Shown here piece by piece: positions 7,644-51,808 of a stretch of DNA of 64,000 bases. The DNA is taken from the IMG/VR virus record IMGVR_UViG_3300030101_003309, positions 1 to 64,000 of that record. One strand, written 5' to 3'. A program made the translations under genes and the position numbers. Below the pieces are notes generated by a model, which worked only from the letters and a program-made list of their open reading frames with translations, ran no database searches and was not told where the DNA came from. The stretch is from an uncultured virus (IMG/VR IMGVR_UViG_3300030101_003309). Lineage: Duplodnaviria > Heunggongvirae > Uroviricota > Caudoviricetes. Numbering within the stretch: the first letter of the stretch is position 1; each line of letters begins with the position of its first letter.

Positions 7644-9453
7644 AATTAAATTTGATCCGCAAAAATATAGACCTGTACCTAATAATGGTCATCCAGAACT
7701 TAACCCAGATTCTGTTGCTTATCAAGAATATTGGGCACGTGAGACTCAAAGGTGTATAGATGGTTTCAAACCAAAAGGTATGAAAAAAATATCGGGCAAA
7801 TATTATTTTTATCTTAATTATTACAAGATATTAGGTAACGATGGTACAAGCGGAAACCGTAAAACACTCATACATCCATGGTATAGATCTATGGATCACG
7901 AATATTTTGACACTATTGAGGTTTGTAAAGATGAAGGTAAAGGTATGATAGTTATAAAAGCCAGAGATAAAGGATTTTCCTATATGAACTCTGGTGCGGT
8001 TGCACACGAGTATACTTTCTTCCCTTTTAACGATGTTGGTGTAGCAGCAGGACTACAAGCTACAGCAGACGCTTTCTTTGACAAAACAAAAAAAGGATTA
8101 AATGGAATACACCCTAATTTTAAGCATTCAGTGTTAAAAGATACCGATGGTATCATGCGTTCTGGATACAAACAAAAAAATAAGGATGGAAAATGGGAAA
8201 TAGGAGGTTATCAATCCACTATTATATGTAGAACAATGGACAATCCAGAAGTATTTAAGGGAGAAAGGGTCTCTCTTATGATTTTTGAAGAAGCTGGAGA
8301 GTTCAAAAAGCTAAAAAATGCCTATATGTCGTCTAAAGCATGTTTTATGGACGGTGATTTACAGTTTGGAGTGCCTATTGTAGGTGGAACAGGTGGTGAT
8401 ATATCAAAAGCTAGTAAAGATTTTATGGATATGTATTATAGTTCAGAAGCATATAACCTAATACCTGTATTTATACCAGCTTCAAAGGCATATTATGGGT
8501 TTTTTGACATACAAACAGGAAAAGAAGATGAAGAAGGCGCAAAACAGAAGCTAATATCTGACAGAGAAGATATACAAAGCTCTGGTGACAACGAAGCGTA
8601 CAATTTACACATACAAAACTACCCACTTACAATAGAAGAGGCATTTTTGAACACGCATTCTGCAAGATTTGATATATCCTTGCTTAACGCACAAAGATCA
8701 AGAATACTTTCTAGTAAAGATCATAGAAGTCAGATACAAAGAGGGTATTTAGATTGGGAATTAGGTGAGCAGGACCCTGTAGTAAGGTGGAGGCCTGACC
8801 CTAACGGTCCATACAAAATATTATCACACCCAAAACCAGAATATAAAAATTTAGACATAGGAGGCATTGACTCTTATGATCAAGATAAAGCTGGAGCGTC
8901 AGAATCTTTGGGTAGTGCAATAATTTATCGTAGATTTGCAAATACCAATATGTCAAGTGATTACGTAGTGGCTGAATATACGGATAGACCTGAAAAAAAA
9001 GAAGATTTTTGGGACGGTTGTCTTAAATTAGCAGTATATTACAACGCAAAAATGTTGGTTGAGTATACGAAAATAGGTATTTTAGATTATTTTAAGCGTA
9101 TGAATGCCTTGAAGTATCTAAAAGAAAAACCAGAGAGCGCACACAACCCTGGCACAAAAACAAGAAACAGGTATGGCGTGCATATGAACAAACAAGTAAA
9201 AGCATTATTAGAGGATCTAATAGATGATTACTTGAGGGAAAGCGCAGAGGACATTTGGTTTTTAGATCTTATTGATGAGTTAGCAAATTATGGTTTACAA
9301 AACACAGACCGTGCTATGGCTTTCGGTTTGTGCCTAATTCACAATATAGACAATTATAGAATGCAGGTTAGAGAAAAAGAAGAAGATATAGTAGACATAG
9401 GACTAAGATATTATAAAATGGGGTATAACGGATTACCTCAACAAATAAATTAA
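7636..9453 (+). CDS. terL: terminase large subunit
   Basis: Walker A-like KARDKGFS, Walker B LMIFEEAG, GGTGG coupling motif, nuclease GGIDSYD and C-terminal DRAMA. Confidence 0.92.
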   Translation: MGKIKFDPQKYRPVPNNGHPELNPDSVAYQEYWARETQRCIDGFKPKGMKKISGKYYFYLNYYKILGNDGTSGNRKTLIHPWYRSMDHEYFDTIEVCKDEGKGMIVIKARDKGFSYMNSGAVAHEYTFFPFNDVGVAAGLQATADAFFDKTKKGLNGIHPNFKHSVLKDTDGIMRSGYKQKNKDGKWEIGGYQSTIICRTMDNPEVFKGERVSLMIFEEAGEFKKLKNAYMSSKACFMDGDLQFGVPIVGGTGGDISKASKDFMDMYYSSEAYNLIPVFIPASKAYYGFFDIQTGKEDEEGAKQKLISDREDIQSSGDNEAYNLHIQNYPLTIEEAFLNTHSARFDISLLNAQRSRILSSKDHRSQIQRGYLDWELGEQDPVVRWRPDPNGPYKILSHPKPEYKNLDIGGIDSYDQDKAGASESLGSAIIYRRFANTNMSSDYVVAEYTDRPEKKEDFWDGCLKLAVYYNAKMLVEYTKIGILDYFKRMNALKYLKEKPESAHNPGTKTRNRYGVHMNKQVKALLEDLIDDYLRESAEDIWFLDLIDELANYGLQNTDRAMAFGLCLIHNIDNYRMQVREKEEDIVDIGLRYYKMGYNGLPQQIN

Positions 9454-35300: not shown

Positions 35301-38300
35301 CCAGAACAAAAGCAAAGAAAAAAGATCAACGTAAAATAGATCAATTAGTCAAAGGTGTAAAAGAAGCTAAAGAAAAAATAATAAAATTTTTTACAAGAAG
35401 TCAAAAAGAATTACCAGATTTTACTCCTACAGTTTTAGATATTAGACCTGCATTCAGATACGGATCAGGAGTCATAGCAGATTCTATAGTTAAAGATGTA
35501 GTGAACAAAAAATTTCCAGGAGCAAAAGGTGTTCTTGCTTATAATAAACTAATGGATGATTATGGACAAGAAGCGTCATCATTAGCTATTGGTTCAACTG
35601 TTTTTATAAATATAGATTCGGTAGGACAAACAGATATAATACACGAAGCAGGACATATATATTATGGGTTGATGGAAGACACTCCGTTGATGAAAAGAAT
35701 TAAAAAACTTCTACCTAAATCTGGATTATATACAAAAACAAAACAAGATTATCCTGAGCTATTACTTATGAAGTTTAAAGGTAGAACTGCTACATTAGGT
35801 GAGATTTACCGAAACATAGTCAATAACACAGACAGTATGTCTGAGAATGATTTAATAAGCATATCTAATAGTATAAGCCAAGCAATAAAAGAAGGTGACA
35901 ATACAAGAATAAATGAATTGTTTATAAATCTTAGAACGCAGTTGAAAGCAAATGGCGCAACAGAATTAAGAAACAGTCAGCAAAAACATATATTAGAAGA
36001 AACATTTGTAAGAACATTAGAGCTGTATTCAAAGGGAACAGTAGACGCTGTGATAGAAGGTTCAGCTGCACAAAAAAGATTAGAAGAAGATCTTATAAAA
36101 TTCTACAAAGAAGTCAAGAATTTGACTAATGATGAAGACGCTAGACAAATATTAAATTTAACTGTAAAAGATATAGCTTCTTTAGATTTAGAAAATGCAA
36201 CAAAAGCTGTTCTTCTTAACTTTGGATCTGATAACAGAACATTACCTAGAATGCGTAATTCTGCATACGGACCAATAAATAAAGCAATAAAAAAACCTTT
36301 TGAAAAAAACACATCTTACTCTGCAGTGTCTTTTTATATATCTGAATATATAGGTGCTAACAGAAGCGTACAAGAAATCACAGACAATGTAATGCAAGCC
36401 ATTGCCGATGACTCCAATTTATCTATCAAAGATGAAAATGTGCAAAGAACAAGAAACTACATTGAATCAATAATTGCACAAATACAAAGACCTAAGCAGC
36501 TACAGCAAGCTGATAAAATATTAGATAAAGAGCTATCTAGGATAGGTATAGATTTGAAATCAAAAGAAGACATTACAGGTCAATCTGAAGAAACAAATGA
36601 TATCAACAGTAGAGAAGAAAAAGACATAGCTTTACCAAAAACTACTACAAACTTTGTTAAGAAACTTGTAGAGGTACATAACAATAGCGTAGAGGAAGGG
36701 GGTAGAATAGATGCAAAACAAGTGTTAGCAGCTCTTATGTCTGCAGCTAAAGCAACAAGAGAGAATCCGATGGACTTTGCATATGAGGTAAGAAGATCAC
36801 CAAACGAAGCATTGACAGCGATAGTTAATGTAATGGACAGGATTTATGGTAATGATCAAGTTTTAACGAATGCAAAGTTATTACAAATTAAAGGTCCAGT
36901 AGAAGGTATAACAATAGAAACATTAGCTCACAATGTATTAACTATACAAAATGAAAATGATAGATATTGGACCAGGTATATAAGCACAAGCGCAACTGTA
37001 GAAAAGAGTGTTGTTGACGGTGTAGTAAAATCAATAAAAGGCAATGAAGATGTTATTAAAGAAGTTGTAAGAGTGTACAACACTTTGTTTCAAGACAAAA
37101 ATCCTGGTAGTAGTAGAGACAGGTATGATGCCGCTAAAGCTATCTTTCAAACTATATTGTCTGCTGATAATAAAGGTGTTTTAATTGACATAGACTCTAT
37201 GCTTAGTCAAACTATGATATACAAAGGCAAAAGACAATCAGTGTCAGATATATTATTTGATAATACAATAAACAAGTTTGGTAATCCAGATTTAAAAAAC
37301 AAATTTATAGTTAGACATATTAGTAAGAAAAAAGGTTTTGCTGATGAAATAAACAACAGAAAAGTTTTAGGAACCTTTCATGGTAATCAATCTGATATAA
37401 GAACAATATTAACGCATGGGGTCATAGCATCTAGAGCGACTAATTATTTATCTATGGTAGATAATGTAGATATGGATGGTGTTAGTATATTTAACAAGGA
37501 GAATGGTTTAAGAAACAGAGCTGACAATGTAGAAAGAATATTTAACGAAGATATACAGTTGGACAAAAACGATATAATGCATCATGATAACAACATATAT
37601 AGTTTGATGGCATTACGTAATAAAAACAAAGATGGTAAAAAAACTTTTCACTTTACCATACATTCTGGTTTAATGCGTAGATTTATCAATCAAGCAAAAG
37701 GTTTAAAAAACAAAGACAACAGAACAAAAAAGTTTACAGATATAAATCCTGATGAATTAATTGCAGCAGACTTCTTTATGTTTCTAAATAAATATAATGA
37801 TGGTATAAAGAATAATGAAAAAGTTATACGGTACGATCAGCCTATTGCAGTATTTTCTGACAAAAGCAGAAGGTATTATGTAGAAAGTATAGCTGCTCAT
37901 AATCCTGCAATGAGAAAACTATTGTTGTCAAAAATAGAAAACAATCCTGCATATAAAGCAAAATATAAAAATGGAGATCGTGTATTTCCATATGACATTG
38001 TTAATGGCAAAATAAAACAAATGCCTGAGTTGCTAAAAAAATGGAGAGACTACGCGAACAAAAACAAAGAGTTATTTAAGAATAATAACGCTCTTAAAAA
38101 AGGTGTGTTTGAAGAAGGTGCGGTAGAGGCATTTTTAACTTCTTATATTGCTAATAAGTTTATGGCGCAGCAACTGTTTGTTCATGATCATAGACAATCT
38201 AAAAATCAAGTAGACTATATAAAACGTGCTGCAGGAGCTATAGCTAGTCACACTGTGTTTGATAGAAATACTACAGTAGAGTTTGTAGTTACAAAAGATT

Positions 38301-41300
38301 ATTACGAAACAAAAGATGGTGACATACTAACAGAAGATCAAGCAAAAAAACAATTTGGAGATAATTGGAAAGACAATGTAGCGATTGAAAATGACGCTAT
38401 GGGTTACGTATTACCAGAAGAAGCAAAGATGATAAGAGCAAGATACGGTGAATCGCAGAATGTAGGTAATGTGTTTAAGTTTGTATATCATTACACACAG
38501 TTAGAAGGCCCGCAAAAGGGCAGGACTACATACATGAAGTTTGCGGTGCATACACTAACACCAGAGCTAGAAGCAAAAAGTGAGTATTTAAAAAACATAG
38601 GTGATGTATTAAGAGCTAGAACACAAGAGGTAAGAGCAATAGGAGCTAACGGAGGTTTGGTTATTGCAGCATCAGAATCTGCAGCAAAACTATACTCAGG
38701 AGGCAACAGGGTAATACACGATATTAGTGAAGGATATGACATGGCTAACATAATGTCCATACAAGACGAAATATATTCTGACGAAAGTGGATATGTAGGT
38801 TTATCAGGTGAAGGTTTTGGTATACAGTTAGAGTTAGACAAACAAACGGACGAAAGATTCTTTCCTTCGCAATTGTTCTACAACTTGGCAACAAACATAG
38901 CGCCCGAAGAACAAACTACATTAAATACTATGCTTTCACTCAGACAAAGGGTTATGGAAGAAAACAATGCTAGTAGAAATGCAAGCTTAATAATGAACGA
39001 CAAAGGTACTGAATCAGATGTAATAAAGGAAAGAGATTCATTCAAGTCTTCTGTGTCTGCTGATATATTTGATGTTCTTGTAGATAATACATATGAAAAT
39101 CTTGATCCAAGATACCCGTATCTAAACGCTGTACACAATTCAATTGCTACAGGGCGTATAACGCATAAAGGTACAAAAATGTATACAAAAGGATCTATAG
39201 GCTATCAATCTGCTAATCTAGGTATGGGTCTAAAATTTTACGAAAAAGGTTTGTTTGCAGAAGACCCATCTATTGTAGCGTCAGAAGCAATAGTTCCTGG
39301 CTACTTACAAGATCAGGGAGTTAAGATTGGTGATTTGTTTATTGGAACAAGGGTGCCTGCACACGGTAAGGTAAGTAGCGCAGTGTTTGTAGTAAAAGAC
39401 TTTCATAAAAAAATAGGCGATACACCCACATCAAATATTACTATACCTTCTTGGGTTAGTAAGTACTGGGGTGCTGACTTAGATGGCGATAGCATACATA
39501 TGAATTTTAAATACACACTTGAAGAGGTTAGTGATAAGTCTTGGAGAAAGCTGTCTAATGATTTCTTTGATGCATATGTAAAACTCATTAGTAGATCGGA
39601 GAAAGAGGGCGAGATACAAGCTGACATAGATTTTGAGAAAGATGCAGAAGCTGCAATAGCAAAAGTATTTAAAGGCAAAAAACAAGATTCACAATTAGAA
39701 CCAACAGGTGATGGGCAAATGTTTGCAGACAATGTGCCTGCTAAAAATTTAGTTGGTATGATTGCTTCATTAATGAGATCATTCAATGTATTTTCTAATA
39801 GTCGGGATTCTTTACCTTTTAAAATAACAATAAAAGGAGAAAAAGGTCCAATAACACATGATAAGTTTTACGATGACGCAACAGCAGAAAACGGTGTCGG
39901 TAACTGGTATGGTGTTGCACAACTATTAAATATAGCATTAGATAATGCGAAACATCAATATGCTAGTAAACTTGGTATGGACATGCAAAGTGTATTTTCA
40001 TATGTAATGCTACGTAGACTTGGTTACTCTTTAAATGATTTAGCTGTACTATATAATTCTGATATAGTTAAAAGCTACATGGACTTTAAAAGAAACAGCA
40101 GTTCTGATTACGTTTCAAGAGATAGCGACATTAAAGATATGTTTATAGAAAAAGATAGTATAAACGAAAATCAATTATTAAAGTTTGCAAAGCAAGAAAA
40201 ACTAGGCACTATTGATATAAAAAAGTTTGTCAAAGATGGGGAAGTGTCACTAGATCTAAACAAACTAAACACATTAAAAGAAAAGCAAAAAGCAGTTTTG
40301 ATGTTATATGCATTAGATAGATATAAAAAGTTTGCAGTAGATCCAATATCAAAAGCTTTCACGGTACATCAAACTATTGAAAAGAATCCACTTGAATTAA
40401 AGAAAATAAGAGACGGTATACAACAGGCGCAAGGTGTGGTCAACATACCAATGATAGGTAAGACAGGATTTACATATACGTTTACTGATCAAACTAAAAA
40501 CAATTTTATAATTGATCATGCTACAAAATTATTTGATTCGGTGTTACAAAGAGCTGAAAGAACAGACGTAAGATACTCACCGTATATGCAAAGAATACTT
40601 ACTATACCTGCATCTTTAGATAGACTGAATGACATAGGTGAACTAAAAGCAGAAGTTGTAAATCAGGTTATAGTAAATAACATAAAAGAACAATTTACAT
40701 TCTTGAATGATGTCAAGTCAGAGACAGTTTTAGTACAACAGTTTCAAGCATTAAAAGACAGTAATCCTGATAACGCTTTCTTGAGAGATGTTATAGAGGT
40801 AGGAGAACGTAAAGGTCAGAAGTATATTGTAATGAATAGAGCAAAGATTACAGAGTTTACATCTTACAAAGCTATAGAGCAATACAAACAAGCTTTTGGT
40901 CAGTTGTTAGAAGCTGAACAAAATTTAATATTTGAAATAGAGTATGCGTTCAATAGGTTTGGATTATCAGGTGGTGCTGGTAAAGCTTCTTCGTTTGTAC
41001 CATTCTTTAGTGATGCGTATGTAGAAAAAATAAACACTGCAATGTCTAATTTAACACAGGACAATCAAAATAAACAACCTGACTTTACAAAAGGCCCTGT
41101 ACCACAAGAACTAGAAAACGCTATAGCAGATGTAAATAGAAGGCAGTCAGGTGTGCAAAACATGACACCAGCAGAGAAAACAAAAATGCATGCAAGAGAA
41201 AACAACAACATAGTTTTACCAAAAGCAAAAAAAGTAATACCAGCAGATCAATCATACAATGGTGATTACTTGGGTGGTGATGTAGAGGTGTTATCTTTTG

Positions 41301-43801
41301 ATGAATTCTTGCGTGATAAAGGTATAGATCCAGCTAAATTAAATGAAGAAGACCAAACATTAAAGGGATTGCGAGATCAATACACCGCGTACTTGAATCA
41401 ACTAAAAACAGTTAAAGAGTTTGAAGAAACACTTACAAGAAAACCACTCAGCGGGTATACAATAGAAGGTCTGTATGACTTAGCAAGAGACTTTGGTAAG
41501 TTTCATGCTGCTGCATCTAAAAGTATAAGGTACAAGATAGAAAGAGAGATAGGCCAAAAAGCATTTCAAGAACAAGCAGAGTTTTTAAGAAAAAGAGGTA
41601 AACAACAAGATTATAAGTACAACATACCTGGTGTAGACGGTACACCACAACAAGATCTTACTAACTTTCAAGCCTGGTTGGGATCTAACAATATGACATC
41701 TAATAGGCCAGAAATACAATACCTTATAAACGAAGCACAAAAACAATATAGAAAATATATAAGAAGTTTTAAAGAGCACAAAAGACTATTAGAGGAAAAG
41801 AATAGAGCTCTAGTTAGATCAAAGTTACGTGGGCTTACTGTGTTAGAAAGATTACAAAAAGAATTTAGTAGACAAGATCGTTACAGGTTTATTTATGGTA
41901 ACATAGCTTCTGTAGAAGATGGTAAAGTAAGACTATTTACTGAACAAGAAATAGTAGAAAGGGGTGTAGATTTGACCAAAGAAGAAAGAGAATATTACAT
42001 AAGATACAAAGCTTTAGGTGAGGTTATGTTATCAGCAAATGATGGTAAAGCAAATATAAATGCTGGTCAGTTAGGTGTGCTTGAACATATGGGAAGAAGT
42101 GGATTGTTTGGACTTTATAGCACAGCTATAGACGGACAAGACTATCATAGAGTAAGAGTCAAAGGTATAGACAAAAACGGTAAAAGAGTATTTAAAACGT
42201 TTTACGAATGGAGATATGATGTATACAAAGGCAGAACAAGTAAACTTACATTAGATTCTGGTAGACAAATATTTGAGCTTGATAAATTAAGACGTAAAGC
42301 AAAACAGTTGAAAGCAAAAGGTATACATGAAGATGGTGAAAAAATTATGTTGTCTGATATGGAGTATGATGCATTAGTTAATGATGGGCATATGATGAGA
42401 AGACTATTAGGTTCTGAAAACTTAACTGACTTTGATCAAGAACTAATAAAAGAATACGAAAGAAGAAAAGGTGTAAAAGCACAAGATGTATCTTATGATA
42501 TAAACACGGCTATGTTAGAATTTATGCGCGGTCATTTATTTTACAATGGAGACGGACAATATAAATTAGAAAACAATGATGTGGTTGCAAGAGAAGACAG
42601 GTTTACTGGTATGGGTGATTTAGCTATACTTACCGATTCTATTATAGCATTTAATAAAAATTTGGATAACAAGAATGCCGTAAAATATTTGACTGGTTGG
42701 TGGAAAGAAGGTTTCTTAACTATGGGTCAAACGCAAGAAAGTGCATTAGGTAAAACAGGTGATAAAGTTATAGACACCTTTGTAAGACTTACATCCCTTA
42801 GATTATTAGGTTTTAATATGTCTGTCGGTATTGGTAACTTACTAGCAGGTAAATATCAAGAATTACGTAAACGTGGTGGCAAACAGTTTATATTAGGTGA
42901 ATCTAGATATTGGAGGAACTTAAAAAGATCAAGAGAAATATTAAAGGACTTAAGAGTAGTGGATTATAGTTTTGACGAATTTATACATTTGGCAGAACAA
43001 AGTGGACCTGCAAAACAATTAGAAAAGTTTTCGTATTTATTTATGGATTATACAGAAGGCTACATACAAGGTGCAGCATTTTTAGGTATGTTGACTGAAC
43101 AAGAATTTAATAATCCAGAAACAATTAGTGAAGAAAGAATAATGCAGATCAATCATAAAATATCTACATTGCATGGTGAGGGTTACACATCATTAGACGC
43201 AAGTCTTTTATCTATGTATTCTTATGGTAGAGCACTGCTTCAATTTAAAAAATGGTTCATCACATTATTCAAAGACAGATTTTCGGCAGAAGATATAGAT
43301 AGATTTGGTGATGTTAATATAGGTAGTTATCGTGCTTCATCTGAATTTGTAACTGATTTGTTTAGAAGATATTTTGCTGGCGGTATAACAAAACAAGAAA
43401 TAATAAAAATATATGACAATGCAAGCGATACTAGAAAAGCAGCAATACGTGCACACGCAAGAGGTGTAGGTCTTGGTGTAACAGTATTGTCACTAATAGC
43501 AATATTAGAAGATGATGATGATCCAGATACAGCAACTATAAAAACACTTAAAAAGTTCTCTAACGATATATTTGTAACTACTGACGTTAGAAGATTTTTA
43601 AACTACACTATAGTTCCATCTTCTTATGGTACTGCAAAGAATACAATGAAAGCTATAAATCAGGCTACATCAGGAGAAAAAACGCAACGGAAAAGCGAAT
43701 ATGCAGATAGAGGACAATCTAAAGCATTGAAAACATTTATGACAGAAGTTTTACCTGGCGCAGAAGTAAGAAAACAAATAGCAAGACTGGGAGAAGAATA
43801 A
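32357..43801 (+). CDS. virion-associated two-barrel RNA polymerase polyprotein
   Basis: 3814 aa; GADLDGD (D2374-D2378) preceded by TRVPAHG; DYIKR, NDAMGYV and YMKFAV motifs; HEAGH zincin motif at aa 1096. Confidence 0.82.
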   Translation: MAENNDYTLGLDNILSQAASQPQAQPQSPADDLQSLYDNNMVEQPETEQSPLGISGIIESTIPSYSASDMQKYTELVESVSAQDQIDQTFAPFNRFDEAPNQQIIQDPDSMIAGTPERIRRGLSAGWGDLVYGTGDTYDYVNAYLFNEAKPTTSVGDYLRKVGSTYQNDNVLVLSEDLKDMQFDDLIKGEFWTSKASRLLPYALSFFIPYVGGARLANLALKGAAYGRRGQKFARGLSSTGILGSMDKGVKVAKAGEKGLKGSGLLRHISKDLGKKGVVPTALTRNVTGFIGGGAAANLMEGAYLAGEAYQEMINDIDPETGQPAFTPQEAAEAAAGVVRDNAKYMYVDMLQYGILFGGAGKGIMGRILRNPITKSTIGQNTRGQIANLVRRAAGAAPAVGAYGTIEGVSEGFQEVYQEWAKYKNMQEAKGLDYDPMTTWLKDAPFGKNNPELRDIFWSSVGLGGAMGGFRGYFDSAAERKALTDKKIDQYNNAIDIIREASADQTADQKLAMERAVDNLLASNIWNYSGDGSVAMSIVENLVADKKITEEQGNAYKIKIEQAEANYAKHHVNSTLTEAGAETAFYQEMKKTRQEGAIAQEIESHEERKAKAREMIKNKNKLDKKLAMLEDEHNQTMQRLEAELATTNQAIEDIYTAEVDKAPTAKTTGQRDKRFKKKGLSKDEFETFTQKGQEQKTERQEQEQKEKEEAEKAEPKKTLRETLTEVGTKALQTAKDVGAAAVKGVKGVVDRVTKPASEREATAAKQEVEETVEKINNLTNKEITSSAKKKLIEALENGDISVEAAEQIKGSGRGGTINNRDVSSAIRKDARKQEKTTEESQEDVKKKDQPKVAPKTEQYERTEEALKGKGIKPFVASISKLVDKKAGAFSYMIKAAAGNTIKFFAKRDVDILKYTREAQNITLRLVNPVAGESNVVEVDGKLYFQFKNNGLLYENKIEVVADGTVIGELEQTAQEFYEEGKTRTKAKKKDQRKIDQLVKGVKEAKEKIIKFFTRSQKELPDFTPTVLDIRPAFRYGSGVIADSIVKDVVNKKFPGAKGVLAYNKLMDDYGQEASSLAIGSTVFINIDSVGQTDIIHEAGHIYYGLMEDTPLMKRIKKLLPKSGLYTKTKQDYPELLLMKFKGRTATLGEIYRNIVNNTDSMSENDLISISNSISQAIKEGDNTRINELFINLRTQLKANGATELRNSQQKHILEETFVRTLELYSKGTVDAVIEGSAAQKRLEEDLIKFYKEVKNLTNDEDARQILNLTVKDIASLDLENATKAVLLNFGSDNRTLPRMRNSAYGPINKAIKKPFEKNTSYSAVSFYISEYIGANRSVQEITDNVMQAIADDSNLSIKDENVQRTRNYIESIIAQIQRPKQLQQADKILDKELSRIGIDLKSKEDITGQSEETNDINSREEKDIALPKTTTNFVKKLVEVHNNSVEEGGRIDAKQVLAALMSAAKATRENPMDFAYEVRRSPNEALTAIVNVMDRIYGNDQVLTNAKLLQIKGPVEGITIETLAHNVLTIQNENDRYWTRYISTSATVEKSVVDGVVKSIKGNEDVIKEVVRVYNTLFQDKNPGSSRDRYDAAKAIFQTILSADNKGVLIDIDSMLSQTMIYKGKRQSVSDILFDNTINKFGNPDLKNKFIVRHISKKKGFADEINNRKVLGTFHGNQSDIRTILTHGVIASRATNYLSMVDNVDMDGVSIFNKENGLRNRADNVERIFNEDIQLDKNDIMHHDNNIYSLMALRNKNKDGKKTFHFTIHSGLMRRFINQAKGLKNKDNRTKKFTDINPDELIAADFFMFLNKYNDGIKNNEKVIRYDQPIAVFSDKSRRYYVESIAAHNPAMRKLLLSKIENNPAYKAKYKNGDRVFPYDIVNGKIKQMPELLKKWRDYANKNKELFKNNNALKKGVFEEGAVEAFLTSYIANKFMAQQLFVHDHRQSKNQVDYIKRAAGAIASHTVFDRNTTVEFVVTKDYYETKDGDILTEDQAKKQFGDNWKDNVAIENDAMGYVLPEEAKMIRARYGESQNVGNVFKFVYHYTQLEGPQKGRTTYMKFAVHTLTPELEAKSEYLKNIGDVLRARTQEVRAIGANGGLVIAASESAAKLYSGGNRVIHDISEGYDMANIMSIQDEIYSDESGYVGLSGEGFGIQLELDKQTDERFFPSQLFYNLATNIAPEEQTTLNTMLSLRQRVMEENNASRNASLIMNDKGTESDVIKERDSFKSSVSADIFDVLVDNTYENLDPRYPYLNAVHNSIATGRITHKGTKMYTKGSIGYQSANLGMGLKFYEKGLFAEDPSIVASEAIVPGYLQDQGVKIGDLFIGTRVPAHGKVSSAVFVVKDFHKKIGDTPTSNITIPSWVSKYWGADLDGDSIHMNFKYTLEEVSDKSWRKLSNDFFDAYVKLISRSEKEGEIQADIDFEKDAEAAIAKVFKGKKQDSQLEPTGDGQMFADNVPAKNLVGMIASLMRSFNVFSNSRDSLPFKITIKGEKGPITHDKFYDDATAENGVGNWYGVAQLLNIALDNAKHQYASKLGMDMQSVFSYVMLRRLGYSLNDLAVLYNSDIVKSYMDFKRNSSSDYVSRDSDIKDMFIEKDSINENQLLKFAKQEKLGTIDIKKFVKDGEVSLDLNKLNTLKEKQKAVLMLYALDRYKKFAVDPISKAFTVHQTIEKNPLELKKIRDGIQQAQGVVNIPMIGKTGFTYTFTDQTKNNFIIDHATKLFDSVLQRAERTDVRYSPYMQRILTIPASLDRLNDIGELKAEVVNQVIVNNIKEQFTFLNDVKSETVLVQQFQALKDSNPDNAFLRDVIEVGERKGQKYIVMNRAKITEFTSYKAIEQYKQAFGQLLEAEQNLIFEIEYAFNRFGLSGGAGKASSFVPFFSDAYVEKINTAMSNLTQDNQNKQPDFTKGPVPQELENAIADVNRRQSGVQNMTPAEKTKMHARENNNIVLPKAKKVIPADQSYNGDYLGGDVEVLSFDEFLRDKGIDPAKLNEEDQTLKGLRDQYTAYLNQLKTVKEFEETLTRKPLSGYTIEGLYDLARDFGKFHAAASKSIRYKIEREIGQKAFQEQAEFLRKRGKQQDYKYNIPGVDGTPQQDLTNFQAWLGSNNMTSNRPEIQYLINEAQKQYRKYIRSFKEHKRLLEEKNRALVRSKLRGLTVLERLQKEFSRQDRYRFIYGNIASVEDGKVRLFTEQEIVERGVDLTKEEREYYIRYKALGEVMLSANDGKANINAGQLGVLEHMGRSGLFGLYSTAIDGQDYHRVRVKGIDKNGKRVFKTFYEWRYDVYKGRTSKLTLDSGRQIFELDKLRRKAKQLKAKGIHEDGEKIMLSDMEYDALVNDGHMMRRLLGSENLTDFDQELIKEYERRKGVKAQDVSYDINTAMLEFMRGHLFYNGDGQYKLENNDVVAREDRFTGMGDLAILTDSIIAFNKNLDNKNAVKYLTGWWKEGFLTMGQTQESALGKTGDKVIDTFVRLTSLRLLGFNMSVGIGNLLAGKYQELRKRGGKQFILGESRYWRNLKRSREILKDLRVVDYSFDEFIHLAEQSGPAKQLEKFSYLFMDYTEGYIQGAAFLGMLTEQEFNNPETISEERIMQINHKISTLHGEGYTSLDASLLSMYSYGRALLQFKKWFITLFKDRFSAEDIDRFGDVNIGSYRASSEFVTDLFRRYFAGGITKQEIIKIYDNASDTRKAAIRAHARGVGLGVTVLSLIAILEDDDDPDTATIKTLKKFSNDIFVTTDVRRFLNYTIVPSSYGTAKNTMKAINQATSGEKTQRKSEYADRGQSKALKTFMTEVLPGAEVRKQIARLGEE

Positions 43802-43837: not shown

Positions 43838-44209
43838 ATGAACGTAAACGATTTATTTAAAGCATCTTTTGGACAGTTTGGGTCAGTATATTTGACTGGT
43901 GACGGTGCACAGTTAGATTTAGACGGGGCAACTGCAAATAGATTTGTAATAGCTATAACTATGTTAGAAACAGTAACGTTTCAGGAGCTACAAACTTTAG
44001 ATAATTTAGTCGGTTCCATTACAACAGAAACAACACAATCACAAATAGATGATGCTTTTGGAGCTTTCACAAATAATTCAGATAATGATCAAACAGAAAT
44101 AACGACTAGTCATGAATTTCCAAAAGGTATAACTATATATGGCAAATGGGATTTTGTTGAACTAAATGCTGGTTCTTGTATTTGTTACTTAGCACCAGTA
44201 GGATATTAA
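43838..44209 (+). CDS. putative structural protein, paralog 1
   Basis: shares G.FGS..L.G, AIT.L and TIYGKWD...G.CI.Y.AP.G with the next gene. Confidence 0.65.
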   Translation: MNVNDLFKASFGQFGSVYLTGDGAQLDLDGATANRFVIAITMLETVTFQELQTLDNLVGSITTETTQSQIDDAFGAFTNNSDNDQTEITTSHEFPKGITIYGKWDFVELNAGSCICYLAPVGY

Positions 44210-44221
44210 AAAATAAAAATT

Positions 44222-44599
44222 ATGAGTTTTAAAAACATTGACCACAATAAATACCGTTTAGGAGCTTTTGGCTCTACATTATTATCAGGAACAGCAGGAA
44301 TAGACCTAACAGGATCAAGCGCAAAAGTTTATGTTTGTGCTATTACTATATTAAATTCTGATGACGCTGACTCAACTTTTAGCGCTATGGAATCTTTAAA
44401 CGGTGAAGTGGGCTGTATAAGCAGTGTAACTGCAGAAAATGATTTAGATGGATCAAACGGAATTGGAGCTGCAGGTAATGGGGTAGATTTAGATAATAGT
44501 ATACTTTTTGCAGCAGGTACAACCATATATGGTAAATGGGATAAAATTACTATGGCAAGCGGTGCGTGTATAGTATACTTTGCACCTAAAGGACATTAG
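44222..44599 (+). CDS. putative structural protein, paralog 2
   Basis: tandem paralog of 43838..44209. Confidence 0.65.
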   Translation: MSFKNIDHNKYRLGAFGSTLLSGTAGIDLTGSSAKVYVCAITILNSDDADSTFSAMESLNGEVGCISSVTAENDLDGSNGIGAAGNGVDLDNSILFAAGTTIYGKWDKITMASGACIVYFAPKGH

Positions 44600-45513: not shown

Positions 45514-46629
45514 ATGAAAAAAATTATTTTAATATTTATATTTTTATATATAAGTTTTTGTCTTAAAGCACAAGAACAAATCTCAGTATATTTAAAAAAT
45601 TACAATATAGAAAAATCTATAAAAAAACAATTAAAGTTTGCTACATTTTATACGGCTGTAAACGGAGGTACATCAAAATCTGACTTAAAAACATTTTCTA
45701 TTACTTCTGGATCACTACAAGAAGAAATTATAGAAACTCCATACGATTATTCATTGACAATAGGTTTAAGAAAAATTGCAAGGTTTGGTTATGAAAACAA
45801 AGCAAATACATTTTATGATGGAACAGAGTCAAATTATACAGATGCTGCTACTGTAGGAAAAGTTCAGGGTTTTGAGTATCTCTTTGAAATAGATTACGCT
45901 AGACAGCAAGGCGTTGAGTACATAGATCAACATCATTTTATTAGATACAGTTCTGATGATGATTGTGAAGGGCCTTTATGTGTAGATCATTTTGCTGCTA
46001 AAATAGAGTATTTAAAAGATGGATTTGCAGATGTAGAATATTTTGAAGTATCTGAAAGATATAGACACAAACATAATAAAGACTTATCTTTTAGTATAGG
46101 TTTCACACACAGACTTGCAGAACCATACGGATATAATCCGCTGCAAGAATGGATCTTGGATAATGGAAATTTACATTACACTTACTTAGCAATACAAGAA
46201 GGATACACAATAGATGTTGTAAATAGTGAGTATAAAGATCCTTCTGGAAACCTAGTTGCTACAAGTCCAGAGGTTTGGAAAGAGGTGGTAATACCAAAAG
46301 TATTAGCAGACTACACGCAGAAGAAAAGAAACGAATTAGAAAGAATTATACAACACTCTTTAGTTATTGGTTTTGACTATTATAAATACAGTAAAAATAC
46401 ATGGCTACACGCATGGGGCAATTTATTGCCTTGGCATTATAATGATAGTAATCAATTTTCTTATCACAATTATATAGAGGATGATCAATGGTATGACTAT
46501 ACTGCAGGTTTGATATACGGAATAAAAGTAAACAAAAATTTAGGATATTTTGTAGAAGGCAAATACAATAAGTACTGGAATAGAGAATGGTACGACTTTA
46601 AATTAGGTGTTAACTATATAATATTTTAA
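45514..46629 (+). CDS. putative outer-membrane beta-barrel protein
   Basis: Sec signal ending KA|Q, aromatic-rich alternating strands, C-terminal KLGVNYIIF beta-signal-like end. Confidence 0.6.
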   Translation: MKKIILIFIFLYISFCLKAQEQISVYLKNYNIEKSIKKQLKFATFYTAVNGGTSKSDLKTFSITSGSLQEEIIETPYDYSLTIGLRKIARFGYENKANTFYDGTESNYTDAATVGKVQGFEYLFEIDYARQQGVEYIDQHHFIRYSSDDDCEGPLCVDHFAAKIEYLKDGFADVEYFEVSERYRHKHNKDLSFSIGFTHRLAEPYGYNPLQEWILDNGNLHYTYLAIQEGYTIDVVNSEYKDPSGNLVATSPEVWKEVVIPKVLADYTQKKRNELERIIQHSLVIGFDYYKYSKNTWLHAWGNLLPWHYNDSNQFSYHNYIEDDQWYDYTAGLIYGIKVNKNLGYFVEGKYNKYWNREWYDFKLGVNYIIF

Positions 46630-46630
46630 A

Positions 46631-46714
46631 ATGAAAAAAATAATTTGTAAATTTGTAAAAATAATAACTTTTGGAAAAATTTGTTTGAACGACTGTTATT
46701 GTAACAAAAAATAA
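46631..46714 (+). CDS. 27-aa Cys-rich peptide (not in ORF track)
   Basis: MKKIICKFVKIITFGKICLNDCYCNKK fills the intergenic gap exactly. Confidence 0.45.
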   Translation: MKKIICKFVKIITFGKICLNDCYCNKK

Positions 46715-46717
46715 AAA

Positions 46718-46999
46718 ATGGCTAAAGAGTTAAGCGAAGAAACATCCTTTCAGGTAAGTGTAAAAACACTTGGAGGTATTGCTGCCTTAATTGCAACATT
46801 AGTTGGTATGTGGTTTACATTACAAGCGGATATTGCTGAAGCAAAAGAATTGCCCGCTCCACCAGATCCAGAGGTTACAAGAATGGAGTTTGATATGAAA
46901 GACCAGATGATACGTCAAACAATCATGGACACAAAAAAAGATGTGGAAGAAATGAAAGAAACTCTTGAGAAAATAGAAGATAAGCTTTACAACAGATAA
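46718..46999 (+). CDS. single-pass membrane protein with coiled coil
   Basis: TM segment LGGIAALIATLVGMWFTL, Pro linker, heptad C-terminus. Confidence 0.7.
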   Translation: MAKELSEETSFQVSVKTLGGIAALIATLVGMWFTLQADIAEAKELPAPPDPEVTRMEFDMKDQMIRQTIMDTKKDVEEMKETLEKIEDKLYNR

Positions 47000-47358
47000 T
47001 GAAAAAATCTGATAGTTTTTACCAGTTCGTAATATACTTTTTAATAATGATATTTGTGTTTTTTGCTGGTACTGCTTTTGGACAAATAAAGGTAATACAG
47101 TTTAATGCTGCTTGGAATAGTGCAAATGATGTTGCTTGGGTTAACAATTTAAAAGAATGTAAAAGCATAGGATACACAGATGTAGCAAAAAATGTAGAAG
47201 CACAAAAAAAACATAAGATTGCAGTCGTGCCTACTATAATAATATTTAAAGATGGAGAAGAAGTGGCAAGATTTCAAGCTGATTTGAGTTTTAAAATGGT
47301 TGCAACAAAAGAAGAAGTACAAGAAGAAATAGATAATCAAATGATGAGTGATTTTTAA
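46999..47358 (+). CDS. exported thioredoxin-fold protein lacking CxxC
   Basis: VIQFNAAWNSAN in place of FxAxWCxxC; VVPTIIIFKDGEEVARF; signal ending FG|Q. Confidence 0.7.
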   Translation: MKKSDSFYQFVIYFLIMIFVFFAGTAFGQIKVIQFNAAWNSANDVAWVNNLKECKSIGYTDVAKNVEAQKKHKIAVVPTIIIFKDGEEVARFQADLSFKMVATKEEVQEEIDNQMMSDF

Positions 47359-47359
47359 T

Positions 47360-49570
47360 ATGAAAAATATATTTTTGTCTATACTATTATTACCTTTATT
47401 TGTTTTTGGACAAAAGGATTTTGTAGTACATATAACTACTGATAGCTATCCGTCAGAAACAAGGTGGGTATTGTTTGCAGACAGTTTTCAAGGACCAATT
47501 ATATCGGAAGTACAATTTGGGCATTATACTTTACAAAATACAACACACACAGATACGGTATTATTAGCGGACAGCATAACGAATATATCTTGGGTTATAT
47601 ATGACTCGTATGGCGATGGTATACCAGGAGGTAGTTATTATGTTTCAGTTTGTGAAGATACTATCGTTAGTTACCCTAACCCTACATTTACAACTGGCTT
47701 AATTCATAATAGAGTAGTGCCTCAATGCATGCCTCAACCACCACCTTGCGTTCCTGCTAAAGTTATAATAAATTTAGACCAATATCAAGGCGAAACTAGT
47801 TGGGACATAAAAGACAGTAATGGTGTAGTGTATGCACAATCAGTAACTTATGCGGGTAATCCAGATTACGCGACTATTGTAGTGCCTGTATGTATACCAA
47901 AAGGTGAGTTAATATTTACTATGTATGACAGCTATGGTGACGGATTGAATGGTTCGTTATGGCAAGGACAAGACGGATCATATTTCGTAAAGCAATGTAA
48001 TGATACATTAGTATATGGCACAGATCCTGCTTTTGGGACTGACACGTCACATGTATTTGTTTCTGATTCTTGCCCACCCATATATGGATGTACAGATGAT
48101 GATTATGTAGAATGGAATCCATTTGCAGACGTAGACGATGGTAGTTGTCAAACTTTAAAAATATATGGATGCACCGATTCTACAATGTTTAATTTTGATC
48201 CGAATGCTAATACTATGGATATGATTGCAGATTGTGAGTTTACCTTAGTGTTGCATGATCTAATGGGTAACGGATGGGTAGGTTCGCATTTAGTTTTGAA
48301 TCATCCAGATAGTGTATATCACTTTAATCACACAGGTGGATTTAACGATGAATATCAAATGAATTTATCAGCACCTGCACCAATGGAGTTTATATTTCAT
48401 ATATCGGCTCAAGCAGCACTAACAACTATAGAGTGTGGTTTTACTTTTATTAATCCTGAAGGAGATACCTTGATAAGTATACAGCCACCTTTTATACAGC
48501 CTTTATTTCCATATGGACTACTTACAAATTGTGGTAATACCTGCGAAGAAAAAGTTTATGGGTGTTTAGATTCATTGGCAATTAATTATGATGAAGAAGC
48601 AAACACTAGTGACTCTAGTTGTTATTATACGCCAGGTTGTACTAACTCAAGTTATTTAGAATATTATACACAAGGTTTTGTAGCAGACTATGATGATGGC
48701 AGTTGTATTATTAAAGCTGTATGGGGCTGTATGGATACATCAGCATTCAATTATGATTCTACTGCTAATATAGACAATGGAGGCTGTGTTCCTGTAATAT
48801 ACGGATGTATGCAGCCGCTTGCCTATAATTACAACCCAAATGCAAATACCGCAGATACTTGTATAGCATTTTTGTATGGGTGTACTGATCCAACAATGTA
48901 CAATTATAATCCGTTAGCTAATGCTGATGATGGTAGTTGTATACCTTATGTGTTTGGTTGCACAGATTCAACAATGTTTAACTTTAATCCACTAGCAAAT
49001 GCTGACAATAATTCTTGCATACCTTATATTTATGGTTGTACTGACCCTAGCATGCTTAATTACAACCCACAAGCAAACACTGAAGATTTTAGTTGTATCG
49101 CTTATATATATGGTTGTACCGATAGTTCTGCTTTTAACTATGACTCTTTGGCTAATACTGATAATGGTTCGTGTATATCTATTGTTGAAGGATGTATGGA
49201 TCTCAATGCGTACAACTACAATGAAATAGCTAATGTAAACGACACATTGTCTTGTTTATATGCTGCGAATTGTATAACTGGACCAGGAGTACCATATTGG
49301 TTAAATGATCCGTGCTATGAATGGGTAATATCTGTAGATGAATATTGTTGCCAAAATCAGTGGGATAATATATGTCAATTAACTTATAACTATTGTGATG
49401 GTTCTTATTATGGTCCAATTCCTAAGCGTGTAGCCAAAAAATTAATTGCAATAACAGATCTGTTGGGTAGACCTGTAAACAATATTAAAAATAAATTTGT
49501 TATCTTTATATACGATAACGGCACAACAGAAAAAAAATTAATAAAAAAATGGCGGTACTTACAACAATAA
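47360..49570 (+). CDS. secreted Cys-repeat protein with T9SS-like C-terminal domain
   Basis: signal MKNIFLSILLLPLFVFG|Q (ATG 47360), 11 GC[TM]D-type repeats, C-terminal ITDLLGRPV...FIYDNGTTEKK. Confidence 0.75.
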   Translation: MKNIFLSILLLPLFVFGQKDFVVHITTDSYPSETRWVLFADSFQGPIISEVQFGHYTLQNTTHTDTVLLADSITNISWVIYDSYGDGIPGGSYYVSVCEDTIVSYPNPTFTTGLIHNRVVPQCMPQPPPCVPAKVIINLDQYQGETSWDIKDSNGVVYAQSVTYAGNPDYATIVVPVCIPKGELIFTMYDSYGDGLNGSLWQGQDGSYFVKQCNDTLVYGTDPAFGTDTSHVFVSDSCPPIYGCTDDDYVEWNPFADVDDGSCQTLKIYGCTDSTMFNFDPNANTMDMIADCEFTLVLHDLMGNGWVGSHLVLNHPDSVYHFNHTGGFNDEYQMNLSAPAPMEFIFHISAQAALTTIECGFTFINPEGDTLISIQPPFIQPLFPYGLLTNCGNTCEEKVYGCLDSLAINYDEEANTSDSSCYYTPGCTNSSYLEYYTQGFVADYDDGSCIIKAVWGCMDTSAFNYDSTANIDNGGCVPVIYGCMQPLAYNYNPNANTADTCIAFLYGCTDPTMYNYNPLANADDGSCIPYVFGCTDSTMFNFNPLANADNNSCIPYIYGCTDPSMLNYNPQANTEDFSCIAYIYGCTDSSAFNYDSLANTDNGSCISIVEGCMDLNAYNYNEIANVNDTLSCLYAANCITGPGVPYWLNDPCYEWVISVDEYCCQNQWDNICQLTYNYCDGSYYGPIPKRVAKKLIAITDLLGRPVNNIKNKFVIFIYDNGTTEKKLIKKWRYLQQ
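48083..49255 (+). repeat. coding repeats GCxD..A.N(Y/F)(N/D)P.AN.DDGSC
   Basis: 11 degenerate copies of about 26 aa counted in the translation; boundaries approximate. Confidence 0.85.
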
Positions 49571-49818
49571 ATGGTATACCTTTGTATACTACAGTAGCTG
49601 AAGCTTTATCGTATGCTGCAGCAAATGGGCTATCAGGGTTTCACACACATAATTATCAAGGACAATTAGGGTATATGGGTGGAGCTACACATAGTCAAGC
49701 AGCTACACCATCTTCAGGTTTTAATCCAAATAATCAAACTAACACACCCCCTGCAACAAGCTCTGCTGGTTTTTCTAGTGGCGGAAGTAGTGGTGGAGGC
49801 GGTGGCGGAGGTTACTAA
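49549..49818 (+). CDS. small protein with Gly/Ser tail
   Basis: 89-aa ORF, GFHTH..G..GYM motif. Confidence 0.65.
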   Translation: MAVLTTINGIPLYTTVAEALSYAAANGLSGFHTHNYQGQLGYMGGATHSQAATPSSGFNPNNQTNTPPATSSAGFSSGGSSGGGGGGGY

Positions 49819-49828: not shown

Positions 49829-50215
49829 ATGTTAAGCAAAATATTTTCAGCAGGTGCAGGAGAACTAATAAAAAATGTAGGTGGAGTTATAGATAATCTT
49901 CATACATCAGCAGAAGAAAAAGCAGATGCTGAAAGAAAAATAAAAGATATGATAATGGGTTACGAAGCAGAAATGCAAAAACAAGTAACCGAACGTTGGA
50001 AAGTAGACATGGCCTCTGATTCTTGGTTGTCAAAAAATATCAGACCATTAGTGTTAATATTTTTATGCGTATCTACAGTACTTTTAATATTTATTGATGC
50101 TGGTGTAATATCTTTTGAAGTAAAAGCATCTTGGGTAGATTTGTTACAATTAGTTTTAATAACTGTAATTGGTGCGTATTTTGGAGGTAGATCATTAGAA
50201 AAAGTTAAAAAATGA
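49829..50215 (+). CDS. holin (3TM/GTA holin family)
   Basis: RWKVDMASDSWLSKNIRPL, TM helices, GAYFGGRSLEK. Confidence 0.8.
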   Translation: MLSKIFSAGAGELIKNVGGVIDNLHTSAEEKADAERKIKDMIMGYEAEMQKQVTERWKVDMASDSWLSKNIRPLVLIFLCVSTVLLIFIDAGVISFEVKASWVDLLQLVLITVIGAYFGGRSLEKVKK

Positions 50216-50494: not shown

Positions 50495-50884
50495 ATGCCG
50501 CAAAATTATACATTAAACGCAACCATGAGCATGACTGCTAGCTCAGCAACAGGATATTCACAATCACAATCTGGAGCATATACATTAAATATTACTGGAG
50601 TAGATCAAATAGCGACTGGAAGAATTGATGTTGCGCATAACAGTGACGCAACTATAATGGCTGCACCTGGACATGGAAGATTTATTTATGTAAAAAATTT
50701 AGATGATACAAATTTTGTAAAAATATATGACGGACCGTCTAGTGAGGCTGATTACATTGGTATATTAAAACCAGGAGAGTTTTTAATGACAGTAATTAGA
50801 GGAACAGGTACAACGGTTGCAAAAGCTGATACAGCCACAGTAACAGTAGAGTACGCTGCAGTAGAAATAGATTCAAACGCATAA
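50495..50884 (+). CDS. putative structural protein
   Basis: FIYVKNLD...LKPGE; paralog of 50895. Confidence 0.6.
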   Translation: MPQNYTLNATMSMTASSATGYSQSQSGAYTLNITGVDQIATGRIDVAHNSDATIMAAPGHGRFIYVKNLDDTNFVKIYDGPSSEADYIGILKPGEFLMTVIRGTGTTVAKADTATVTVEYAAVEIDSNA

Positions 50885-50894
50885 AAAATAAAAT

Positions 50895-51323
50895 ATGGCA
50901 ACACAATCATTAACAATATCAATAACAGGTTCTGTAACTTTAGTAGACGCTACAGGAACAACAGTATTTACATATACTCCTAATTTTACTACAGATGCAA
51001 CTACAGTTGATTCTGCATTAATATCTACAGGAGAAATACTTACTAACGGAACATCAGACACTACTATAAATTTAGCAAGTCACAATAAAGACCGATTATA
51101 TGCATTAATAAAAAATGTAGACACAGACTATCCAGTAGCTGTCAAACCAGACGGTGATGTAATAGCTGATTTAAAACCAGGAGAATGCATGGTAGCCCCT
51201 TTAAATTTAGATGGAGCGGCAAATGATTCAGCAAATTTAGATGTTGCGGCAACAACAGCAGCCCAAAAAGTACAATATTTATTATGTGATGGGGCAGACT
51301 TAGGTTTGTCGGATGATGACTAA
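50895..51323 (+). CDS. putative structural protein
   Basis: LIKNVD...LKPGE; paralog of 50495. Confidence 0.6.
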   Translation: MATQSLTISITGSVTLVDATGTTVFTYTPNFTTDATTVDSALISTGEILTNGTSDTTINLASHNKDRLYALIKNVDTDYPVAVKPDGDVIADLKPGECMVAPLNLDGAANDSANLDVAATTAAQKVQYLLCDGADLGLSDDD

Positions 51324-51331: not shown

Positions 51332-51808
51332 ATGAAACTTAAAGTATTAAGATTTAGTAGCCAGGAGGATAGTACTTCTGGCTTACTTTTTTTAGAAGGA
51401 GATTTAGGTCTTGAATTTTTGTGTTATACATTAGAAGATGAAAGAAGAGCACTAAAGATAAAAGGAGAAACAAGGGTACCTGCAGGTATATACGAAATAA
51501 AATTAAGAACAGAAGGTGGTTTTCATGCTAAATACAAAAAAAGATTTGCTCCAATACATAAAGGGATGCTACACGTTATTGACGTGCCGAATTTTAAATG
51601 GGTACTTATACACACTGGTAATACTGATGAACATACTGCTGGATGCCTTTTGGTTGGCGACTCGCAAGAAAACAATATCATCATCAAGGATGGGTTCATT
51701 GGAAAATCAACTAATGCGTACAAGAGAATATATCCGAATATTGCTAAAGCGATAGACAGGGGAGATAAGGTTACCATACAATATATAGACTTAGATAAAA
51801 ATATCTAA
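51332..51808 (+). CDS. DUF5675 family protein, endolysin candidate
   Basis: CYTLED...VPAGIY...VLIHTGN...TAGCLLVG. Confidence 0.75.
   Translation: MKLKVLRFSSQEDSTSGLLFLEGDLGLEFLCYTLEDERRALKIKGETRVPAGIYEIKLRTEGGFHAKYKKRFAPIHKGMLHVIDVPNFKWVLIHTGNTDEHTAGCLLVGDSQENNIIIKDGFIGKSTNAYKRIYPNIAKAIDRGDKVTIQYIDLDKNI

Follow-up and report, generated by a model that had tools for sequence, protein, structure and literature searches.

What do five tightly packed genes for exported and membrane proteins do beside the holin gene of an uncultured crAss-like phage? The question is raised by IMG/VR record IMGVR_UViG_3300030101_003309 (Caudoviricetes; 65,897 bases, 98% complete by CheckV), of which bases 1–64000, called the window below, were analyzed. 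A preliminary description of this DNA had read the genes as one module that remodels the envelope of the infected cell. We find that the five genes are not one unit. The unit is a trio comprising an outer-membrane-type β-barrel, a coiled-coil protein, and a thioredoxin-fold protein without CxxC. The trio lies late and with lysis genes and most likely does the job of a spanin at lysis, with the surface protein encoded beside it (the cargo) as a passenger; we give this two-layered reading a probability of about 0.45. Among the activities grouped under envelope remodeling, the best match for the trio is outer-membrane disruption, and surface display suits the cargo alone; none is established.

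The five open reading frames (ORFs) are as follows:

45514..46629, +: predicted outer-membrane β-barrel, 371 aa, leader KA↓Q20, ending in GVNYIIF; core of the trio
46631..46714, +: Cys-rich peptide, 27 aa, four Cys, net charge +6; optional accessory
46718..46999, +: transmembrane (TM)/coiled-coil protein of the inner membrane (by hydropathy), 93 aa; core of the trio
46999..47358, +: exported thioredoxin-fold protein, 119 aa, W-N-x-x-N for W-C-x-x-C; core of the trio
47360..49570, +: repeat protein (cargo), 736 aa; exchangeable

All five are present on the + strand, and relatives and recurring neighbors exclude chance. The tight packing, the leaders that expose Gln in three proteins (KA↓Q, FG↓Q, and FG↓Q, by pattern match), and the GVNYIIF end of the first gene are present as previously described. 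The start of the repeat protein is most likely the ATG at 47360, as in the related loci L001 and L002, and not the GTG at 47348.

Conservation of the trio

Viral contigs contain confirmed relatives of the barrel at 135 places, and 299 representatives (50% clustering) match it at E 0.001 or better. Loci were compared in four sets: A for the window's barrel (best 80 of 135), and B (80 of 96), C (80 of 130), and D (6 of 6) for distant barrels. The same profiles were applied to three sets that had been held out, namely E (31 of 31), F (7 of 8, after removal of L434, which matched weakly and in part), and G (80 of 222). Many loci of sets A–C end at contig edges.

The trio is complete in 211 of the 246 loci of sets A–D. 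The coiled-coil gene occurs in 73, 68, 68, and 6 loci of sets A, B, C, and D, respectively, and the thioredoxin gene in 71, 66, 71, and 6. Similarly, 109 of the 118 held-out loci contain the trio (29, 5, and 75 in E, F, and G). It recurs over six barrel subfamilies, down to about 31–35% identity, in podovirus-like, 29-kb siphovirus-like, and 100–167-kb genomes. The coiled-coil gene is directly upstream of the thioredoxin gene in 211/211 trio loci, and the barrel gene stands before or after the pair. Indeed, neighborhood conservation had been proposed as a check on the module, and the neighbors of the barrel recur with it in viral contigs. What survives of the proposed five-gene module is this co-conserved trio: the Cys peptide is optional, occurring in 24/80 close loci and 16/118 held-out loci, and the cargo is of three types or missing near the trio.

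Optional inserts in the module include a 56-aa protein with C-x-x-C and a C-terminal Phe/Leu (L026:8558-8725), a staphylococcal-nuclease homolog (PF00565; L012:8350-8715), and a coiled-coil/TM protein of ~69 aa (L011:8277-8483). In some genomes, the barrel gene or the coiled-coil/thioredoxin pair is present twice (L020:1267-2364 and 7001-8074; L469; G028).

The barrel

The barrel was modeled with AlphaFold2 from 84 sequences (predicted local distance difference test score, 81.8; predicted template modeling score, 0.78). The model has 12 membrane strands by our count and one extra hairpin, two N-terminal helices, and a helical loop domain of ~75 residues. Its best fold matches are Tsx (Z 11.3, root-mean-square deviation (rmsd) 4.7, 197 residues aligned), NanC, EstA, and KdgM, all 12-stranded barrels, at Z 10.7–11.3. 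Identities are 4–12% and the Z values are tied across these barrels; on the model, the search fixes the fold and not the function. The PorV/FadL and PorP/SprF families of NCBIfam and Pfam do not match the barrel, and FadL aligns at Z 7.2, below the 12-stranded barrels; the fold search does not decide against a shuttle barrel of this kind. Searches of Pfam and PHROG yielded no family, and NCBIfam yielded a weak match on the leader only. The leader, the even-stranded barrel, and the aromatic C-terminus expected of an outer-membrane barrel are all present, the last as Phe; among the 239 long members, 221 end in Phe or Tyr. The model and fold matches thus bear out the barrel proposed in the preliminary description.

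Using mature-protein numbering, conservation among 23 distant full-length homologs falls on strand residues (many Arg; H280, D309, and E329), on loop 69–99, and on domain 184–258. The conserved strand Arg/Lys residues include R67, K68, R111, R125, R163, and R181. By strand counting, loop 69–99, which is conserved and modeled at low confidence, would be periplasmic, and helical domain 184–258 would lie outside. Within the latter, Y186, G187, A207, G211, W221, G226, A230, and F236 are kept in at least 80% of the 23 rows.

The barrel family is provisionally phage-only. The three ESM Atlas clusters shown for it are 100% viral, and BFVD holds one relative. Of 53 pattern matches in 185,579 GTDB genomes, none was confirmed as a cellular homolog in a scan that sees close relatives only.

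The leader of the window's barrel is of the signal peptidase I type. A lipobox-type Cys followed by K-x-C-C-x-Q is found in 41/80 rows of its subfamily (window included), among them L004, L005, L009, and L040; elsewhere, such leaders occur in 1/160 barrels of other subfamilies and 1/60 cargos. If lipidated and not cut before the Gln, these leaders would lipid-anchor the barrel in many relatives. In a quick tree built from 79 mature barrels (rows <330 aa left out), the leader type changes 17 times, and at least seven changes are forced by well-supported branches. The K-x-C-C-x-Q leader is also seen on the cargo of L023 and G003. A second, small barrel of ~136 aa resembling an outer-membrane protein (OMP) often lies near the module or on the opposite strand (L026:8136-8543; L040:13275-13682 (-); L453:10534-10956), with weak matches to PF13505 and NF049866.

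The predicted inner-membrane and periplasmic proteins

By hydropathy, the 93-aa protein has one N-terminal TM segment, a Pro-rich hinge, a periplasmic helix, and a heptad coiled coil. In its predicted orientation, this topology would be that of an i-spanin, which is a type II protein of the inner membrane whose coiled coil lies in the periplasm. Residues E57, K61, and R66 are invariant across subfamilies.

The profile of the thioredoxin-like family matches 212 solved sequences, with thioredoxins at E about 1e-10. In its 83 rows, Q1, W11, N12, P50 of the cis-Pro loop, and the C-terminal F91 are invariant, and the W-C-x-x-C active site is not present. Because W-N-x-x-N replaces W-C-x-x-C in a profile-matched thioredoxin family, the protein is a redox-dead fold; we read it as an adaptor. 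The earlier term "Cys-less" went too far: one Cys, not invariant in the family, sits outside the motif, so the protein is CxxC-less only. The invariant Gln at +1 upholds the proposed export into a Bacteroidota-type envelope. A complex prediction with the barrel, two coiled-coil copies, and the thioredoxin scored 0.18 against a mark of 0.32, which gives no verdict and weighs neither way.

The window's Cys peptide has a helical moment of 0.75 (shuffle p 0.026; p 0.02–0.43 across 24 members). It is cationic and modestly amphipathic, and our guess is that it could assist membrane damage.

Association with lysis genes

The genes that follow the cargo are:

49549..49818, +: 89-aa ORF with a Gly/Ser-rich tail, overlapping the 3′ end of the cargo gene, between cargo and holin
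49829..50215, +: holin of the GTA_holin_3TM type (phrog_3427, E 1.3e-31; PF11351 at 24.1 bits, slightly below the cut-off of 24.8)
51332..51808, +: DUF5675 protein, probable endolysin (PF18925, 95 bits)

A counterpart of the 89-aa ORF is present in 18/80 close loci. The DUF5675 protein swaps with M15 and other endolysins across related loci, pointing to a probable endolysin role; a preprint counts a DUF5675 protein as a C82-like candidate lysin, with its function unknown (bioRxiv 10.64898/2026.04.11.717860).

Among loci of sets A–D with 3 kb of sequence on both sides, 73 of 82 have a holin or endolysin within 3 kb: 21/23 in A, 27/32 in B (32/32 with DUF5675), 23/25 in C, and 2/2 in D. In the held-out loci, the figure is 43/70 (E, 12/15; F, 4/4; G, 27/51). 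The lysis profiles were built from neighbors in sets A–D, most of them PHROG-named, and may miss unrelated lysis genes. The clearest example is L241–L244, where the genes for the coiled coil, thioredoxin, barrel, M15 endolysin, and holin follow head to tail. In 54/80 loci of set G, nrdA/nrdB or DnaB neighbors the trio; there, an endolysin-like gene lies within 2.5 kb downstream in 28/46. Since the trio in this position still brings an endolysin-like gene, its link to lysis is not only a late-gene effect.

Two smaller counts bear on the same link. Of 24 records of the holin family, the five near-complete IMG/VR records all carry the barrel at some position (5/5), one of them already in set A. 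A distance within 6.5 kb in 15/15 genomes, 5.2 being expected, is weak, as the threshold was chosen after the positions were seen and late-gene clustering was ignored.

A conserved membrane protein of ~72 aa with no known family (L023:10019-10234; L083:8999-9211) is a frequent companion, in 15/80, 44/80, and 34/80 loci. In many holin loci, its gene immediately precedes that of the holin; it is a candidate holin partner or antiholin.

The cargo

The 736-aa cargo has three D-x-x-G-[DN]-G domains and 11 Asp/Asn repeats bracketed by Cys, as well as a helical domain with six Cys and a short tail modeled as three strands; the repeat number given earlier agrees with our count of 11 GC-[TML]-[DNQ] repeats. 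Its leader is FG↓Q18, and [AGS]Q is found by pattern in the leader region of 59/60 orthologs.

We consider export of the window's cargo by type IX secretion (T9SS) quite probable. The canonical C-terminal domain (CTD) that directs such export is recognized by hidden Markov models (HMMs), and three orthologs, L034, L049, and L064, carry TIGR04183 above the cut-off (33–42 bits vs 23), as do L245 and L246. Of the 60 set-A cargos, 53 have the short tail, three the canonical CTD above cut-off, and four are truncated; the canonical signal is thus present in 3/56 complete orthologs. Short and canonical tails occupy one position in these cargos and are therefore interchangeable. In its model, the short tail has three strands. 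It can be aligned weakly with HBP35 (Z 3.2, rmsd 2.2, 39 residues) and with the RgpB CTD (Z 2.9, rmsd 2.5, 39 residues, 26%), which rank 2 and 6 of 48,161, with Z tied with unrelated chains. D-x-L-G-R, comprising the motif B Gly and a basic residue, is invariant in 37 tails, and the motif E end is Lys-rich. Among cargos of type B, motif B is found in 74/76 and G-[ILVF]-[YF]-I in 52/76; type E shows both motifs in the rows listed.

The window's tail itself gives no match to TIGR04183, TIGR04131, or PF18962 even at E 0.05. Against membership among the short CTDs, Thr replaces the motif B Tyr and the motif D G-x-Y is absent in the window's family, and the window's own tail extends six residues beyond motif E. 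A profile comparison of the short tail to the T9SS CTD gave a probability of 6.5%. Foldseek found no fold match for the six-Cys domain or the tail, and in a search of unrelated bacterial proteins for the short tail, 116/118 rows were the phage family itself. Of the label "T9SS-type repeat protein", what holds is the probable export, with three canonical orthologs and a tail modeled as three strands; the check proposed for it, a match of the window's tail to TIGR04183 or TIGR04131, failed.

The cargo is also probably sugar-coated. With [AILVMT] as the assumed third-position set, the window's cargo has 12 D-(S/T)-[AILVMT] motifs, of which half lie outside the repeats; shuffled sequences have 2.9. 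Enrichment at p 0.01 or better is seen in 58/60 A cargos and 68/76 B cargos, and in 0/246 barrels and 0/6 structural-region controls. D(S/T)X is the O-glycosylation motif of Bacteroidota (PMC11969387). Most likely, then, the cargo is a glycosylated protein made late and displayed at the surface, where it may shield the cell or stick to new hosts or particles.

Cargos differ between subfamilies. Set A has the long repeat protein, with 6–18 repeats and in some cases a MAM domain; set B has an unrelated acidic protein of ~230 aa in 77/80 loci; and set E has a protein of ~175 aa in 24/31, which by eye may share a domain type with cargo A. The set-B cargo (L104:7017-7712 and 75 relatives) combines a mucin-like stalk, in which D-T-[IVL] recurs, with a head resembling LDL receptor A (weak PF00057) and a short CTD.

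A hydrophobic ORF inside the cargo gene (48999-49229) matches the lipobox pattern. We rejected it as a lipoprotein gene: it has no soluble part and is read as a shifted-frame codon shadow of the repeats. A hydrophobic shifted-frame ORF also lies within cargo repeats at L247:5732-6061.

Role of the trio

Somewhat short of an even chance, in our estimate, the trio forms a three-part bridge from inner to outer membrane that opens the outer membrane at lysis or signals from the surface to the lysis clock. The coiled-coil protein would be anchored in the inner membrane and the barrel placed in the outer membrane by the host's β-barrel assembly machinery (BAM). The peptide-binding groove of the thioredoxin fold would serve to connect them in the periplasm. 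After removal of the wall by the endolysin, the bridge would pull the membranes together or open the outer membrane. The cargo would be exported by Sec, O-glycosylated by the host, and passed through the host T9SS by its short C-terminal signal; it would then probably form a coat on the infected cell.

A number of findings count against this bridge. A membrane anchor would not obviously call for 12 strands, conserved charged residues, and a conserved ~75-residue loop domain placed outside the cell by strand counting, and the coiled-coil protein has only ~58 residues in the periplasm. In 28/69 set-G loci, no holin or endolysin was detected within 2.5 kb downstream. Only 8/80 loci of the window's holin family hold a trio gene within 8 kb. 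In 4/15 genomes, the holin lies 11.5–34 kb from the trio; in four of the five near-complete records noted above, a holin at this distance goes with a trio 3.6–6.2 kb from an endolysin-like gene. Nonlabens phage P12024L, with an endolysin and a holin of this family, lacks the barrel; the holin family can therefore do without the trio. The loci are related by descent, so the counts are not independent. Among cultured phages in INPHARED, none matches the barrel. In favor of the bridge, the preliminary description had recognized no spanin, and likewise a pattern scan, although crude, found no lipoprotein o-spanin candidate by the lysis genes in 16 genomes with the trio, of which 15 are near complete and one is 62% complete; leaders of module proteins aside, a few candidates lie elsewhere. 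No plausible lipoprotein gene was found in G000.

The strongest alternative, to which we give about half the weight of the bridge, is a trans-envelope sensor or blocker: the loop domain of the barrel would bind a receptor, an incoming virion, or a neighboring cell and the thioredoxin and coiled-coil proteins would relay this to lysis timing, or the barrel would simply mask the receptor. Precedents exist on both counts, in T4 lysis inhibition, an analog of surface-sensed lysis timing, and in lambda Lom, which blocks LamB (cited in bioRxiv 10.64898/2026.10.24.761521). The conserved loop domain 184–258, the coverage of all three compartments, and the lack of a catalytic CxxC agree with this, and it explains closeness to lysis genes without absolute linkage. 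However, it leaves the genomes without a recognized outer-membrane lysis step, and its inside/outside assignment comes from strand counting only. Proteins that act in exclusion tend to be made early and to evolve fast, but the mean column identity of close barrels is 72%.

It is unlikely that the trio and cargo form one integrated surface-display system, in which the barrel docks the cargo as an equivalent of PorV/SprF and the thioredoxin and coiled coil aid its folding. Three cargo types have each been recruited next to the trio, the window's cargo is disulfide-rich (37 Cys), and in one subfamily the cargo gene lies between the barrel and coiled-coil genes in 66/66 trio loci. Against these stand sets C and G, where known cargo types are found near the trio in 0/80 and 0/80 loci; because of this absence, the trio cannot depend on the cargo. 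Moreover, TIGR04183 was found above the cut-off in 0/14 set-C genomes at least 90% complete and in 1/8 set-G records, the HMM missing short tails; the short-tail profile was also not found in six set-C genomes. The thioredoxin, in addition, is redox-dead.

Still less probable is a solute channel for anions, nucleosides, or phosphate that raises supply during infection, with the coiled-coil protein as a TonB-like tether in the inner membrane. The top folds Tsx, NanC, and KdgM are small-solute channels, the strand Arg/Lys residues are conserved, and nrdA/nrdB occur as neighbors in one subfamily; transport genes also often flank 10-, 12-, 16-, and 22-stranded phage OMPs (bioRxiv 10.64898/2026.10.24.761521). 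However, the fold matches combine low identity with tied Z values, the common neighbors include no transport genes, and the position is late and among lysis genes. That the proteins are ordinary virion parts or are ejected from the tail region is very improbable: the genes lie among structural genes, but the proteins have export leaders with Gln at +1 in three cases, lipobox leaders in relatives, a BAM-type aromatic C-terminus, and glycosylation motifs, and occur across unrelated phage architectures.

Comparison with known systems

As in two-component spanins (lambda Rz/Rz1 type), a predicted type II coiled-coil protein and an outer-membrane partner are encoded near holin and endolysin, and the partner has a lipobox in the 41 relatives noted above. 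The window's system differs in that its barrel is a 350-residue integral protein without a lipobox, a third, soluble part has a thioredoxin fold, and no spanin family matches. The spanin-less phage phiKT reportedly has a disruptin, gp28, a small cationic peptide with outer-membrane disruption as its proposed role (bioRxiv 10.1101/515445). The window's 27-aa peptide, likened to it by description and not by sequence, is also cationic, and amphipathic, but is Cys-rich and optional. It has been suggested that an OMP could act as an o-spanin, and 91 of 677 phages of Gram-negative hosts (about 13%) have no recognizable spanin (Kongari et al. 2018, PMC6139136).

Phage-made barrels in the host outer membrane are represented by lambda Lom and 1,603 huge-phage OMPs (bioRxiv 10.64898/2026.10.24.761521). 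The huge-phage OMPs are usually nearest host homologs, whereas no cellular homolog of the window's barrel was found. The main text of that preprint does not contain "thioredoxin", "spanin", or "T9SS"; its supplementary OMP table may hold the barrel family. Variable phage genes with a T9SS type A signal, whose products are presumed to go through the host's system, are found in Cryophage (Bellas et al. 2020, PMC7468147) and among gut-phage ORFs (PMC6949934). Unlike these, the window's cargo is Cys-rich, has no recognized enzyme domain, belongs to a family with mostly the short signal, and lies beside a conserved trio. The short CTDs of Prevotella intermedia (PMC11969387), of about 43–55 residues in one three-stranded sheet, share with the window's tail the motif B Gly and basic residue and a basic motif E; the tail is modeled with three strands. 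The window's tail differs in motif B Tyr and motif D, as described above; cargos of two other subfamilies keep both. In P. intermedia, the only species reported with short and long CTDs, the short CTDs are cleaved and the proteins glycosylated (PMC11969387).

Phage T9SS cargo and phage OMPs are thus already in print; our searches of the open-access literature found no description of the trio. At about 1.8 kb, the trio is a widespread and clonable candidate for the outer-membrane step in spanin-less phages. If it is a bridge, it would be common to many unrelated uncultured phages of Bacteroidota-type hosts that also coat the infected cell with T9SS cargo glycosylated by the host. If the cargo uses T9SS, lytic phages would exploit the host's T9SS and O-glycosylation, and phage T9SS cargo is probably undercounted, as standard HMMs miss short signals.

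Genome setting and host

PHROGs recognize terminase, portal, and major capsid genes in the window. The terminase is ~30% identical to those of crAss-like phages and has 208 matching records, mostly Flavobacterium, Bacteroides, and Cellulophaga phages. Together with the Gln at +1 of three leaders and the T9SS signals, this suggests a Bacteroidota host; high values under the Q-rule, Gln at +1, are also seen in a few Chlorobi and Ignavibacterium (PMC5837995). Tara entries among the homologs make a marine origin likely.

Two GTDB matches to the cargo tail, in metagenome-assembled genomes of Rickettsiales and Parvibaculum, carry no host evidence. L247, a phage-like stretch with the complete module and a holin, lies on a 120-kb contig filed under a Rickettsiales metagenome-assembled genome and is probably a mis-binned phage. 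One marine metatranscriptome (share 0.06) yielded 26 short contig pieces, 18 of them <90% alike, from which neither transcription nor operon structure follows. A scan for promoters and terminators was at chance level (43 vs 45.3 and 4 vs 3.3).

Two pairs of tandem paralogous small proteins with no known family (123/125 aa and 129/142 aa) flank the module at 43838-44599 and 50495-51323. At the end of the structural block, 32357-43801 encodes a 3814-aa protein without a PHROG match, which from its position we take to be a candidate virion RNA polymerase of the crAss type.

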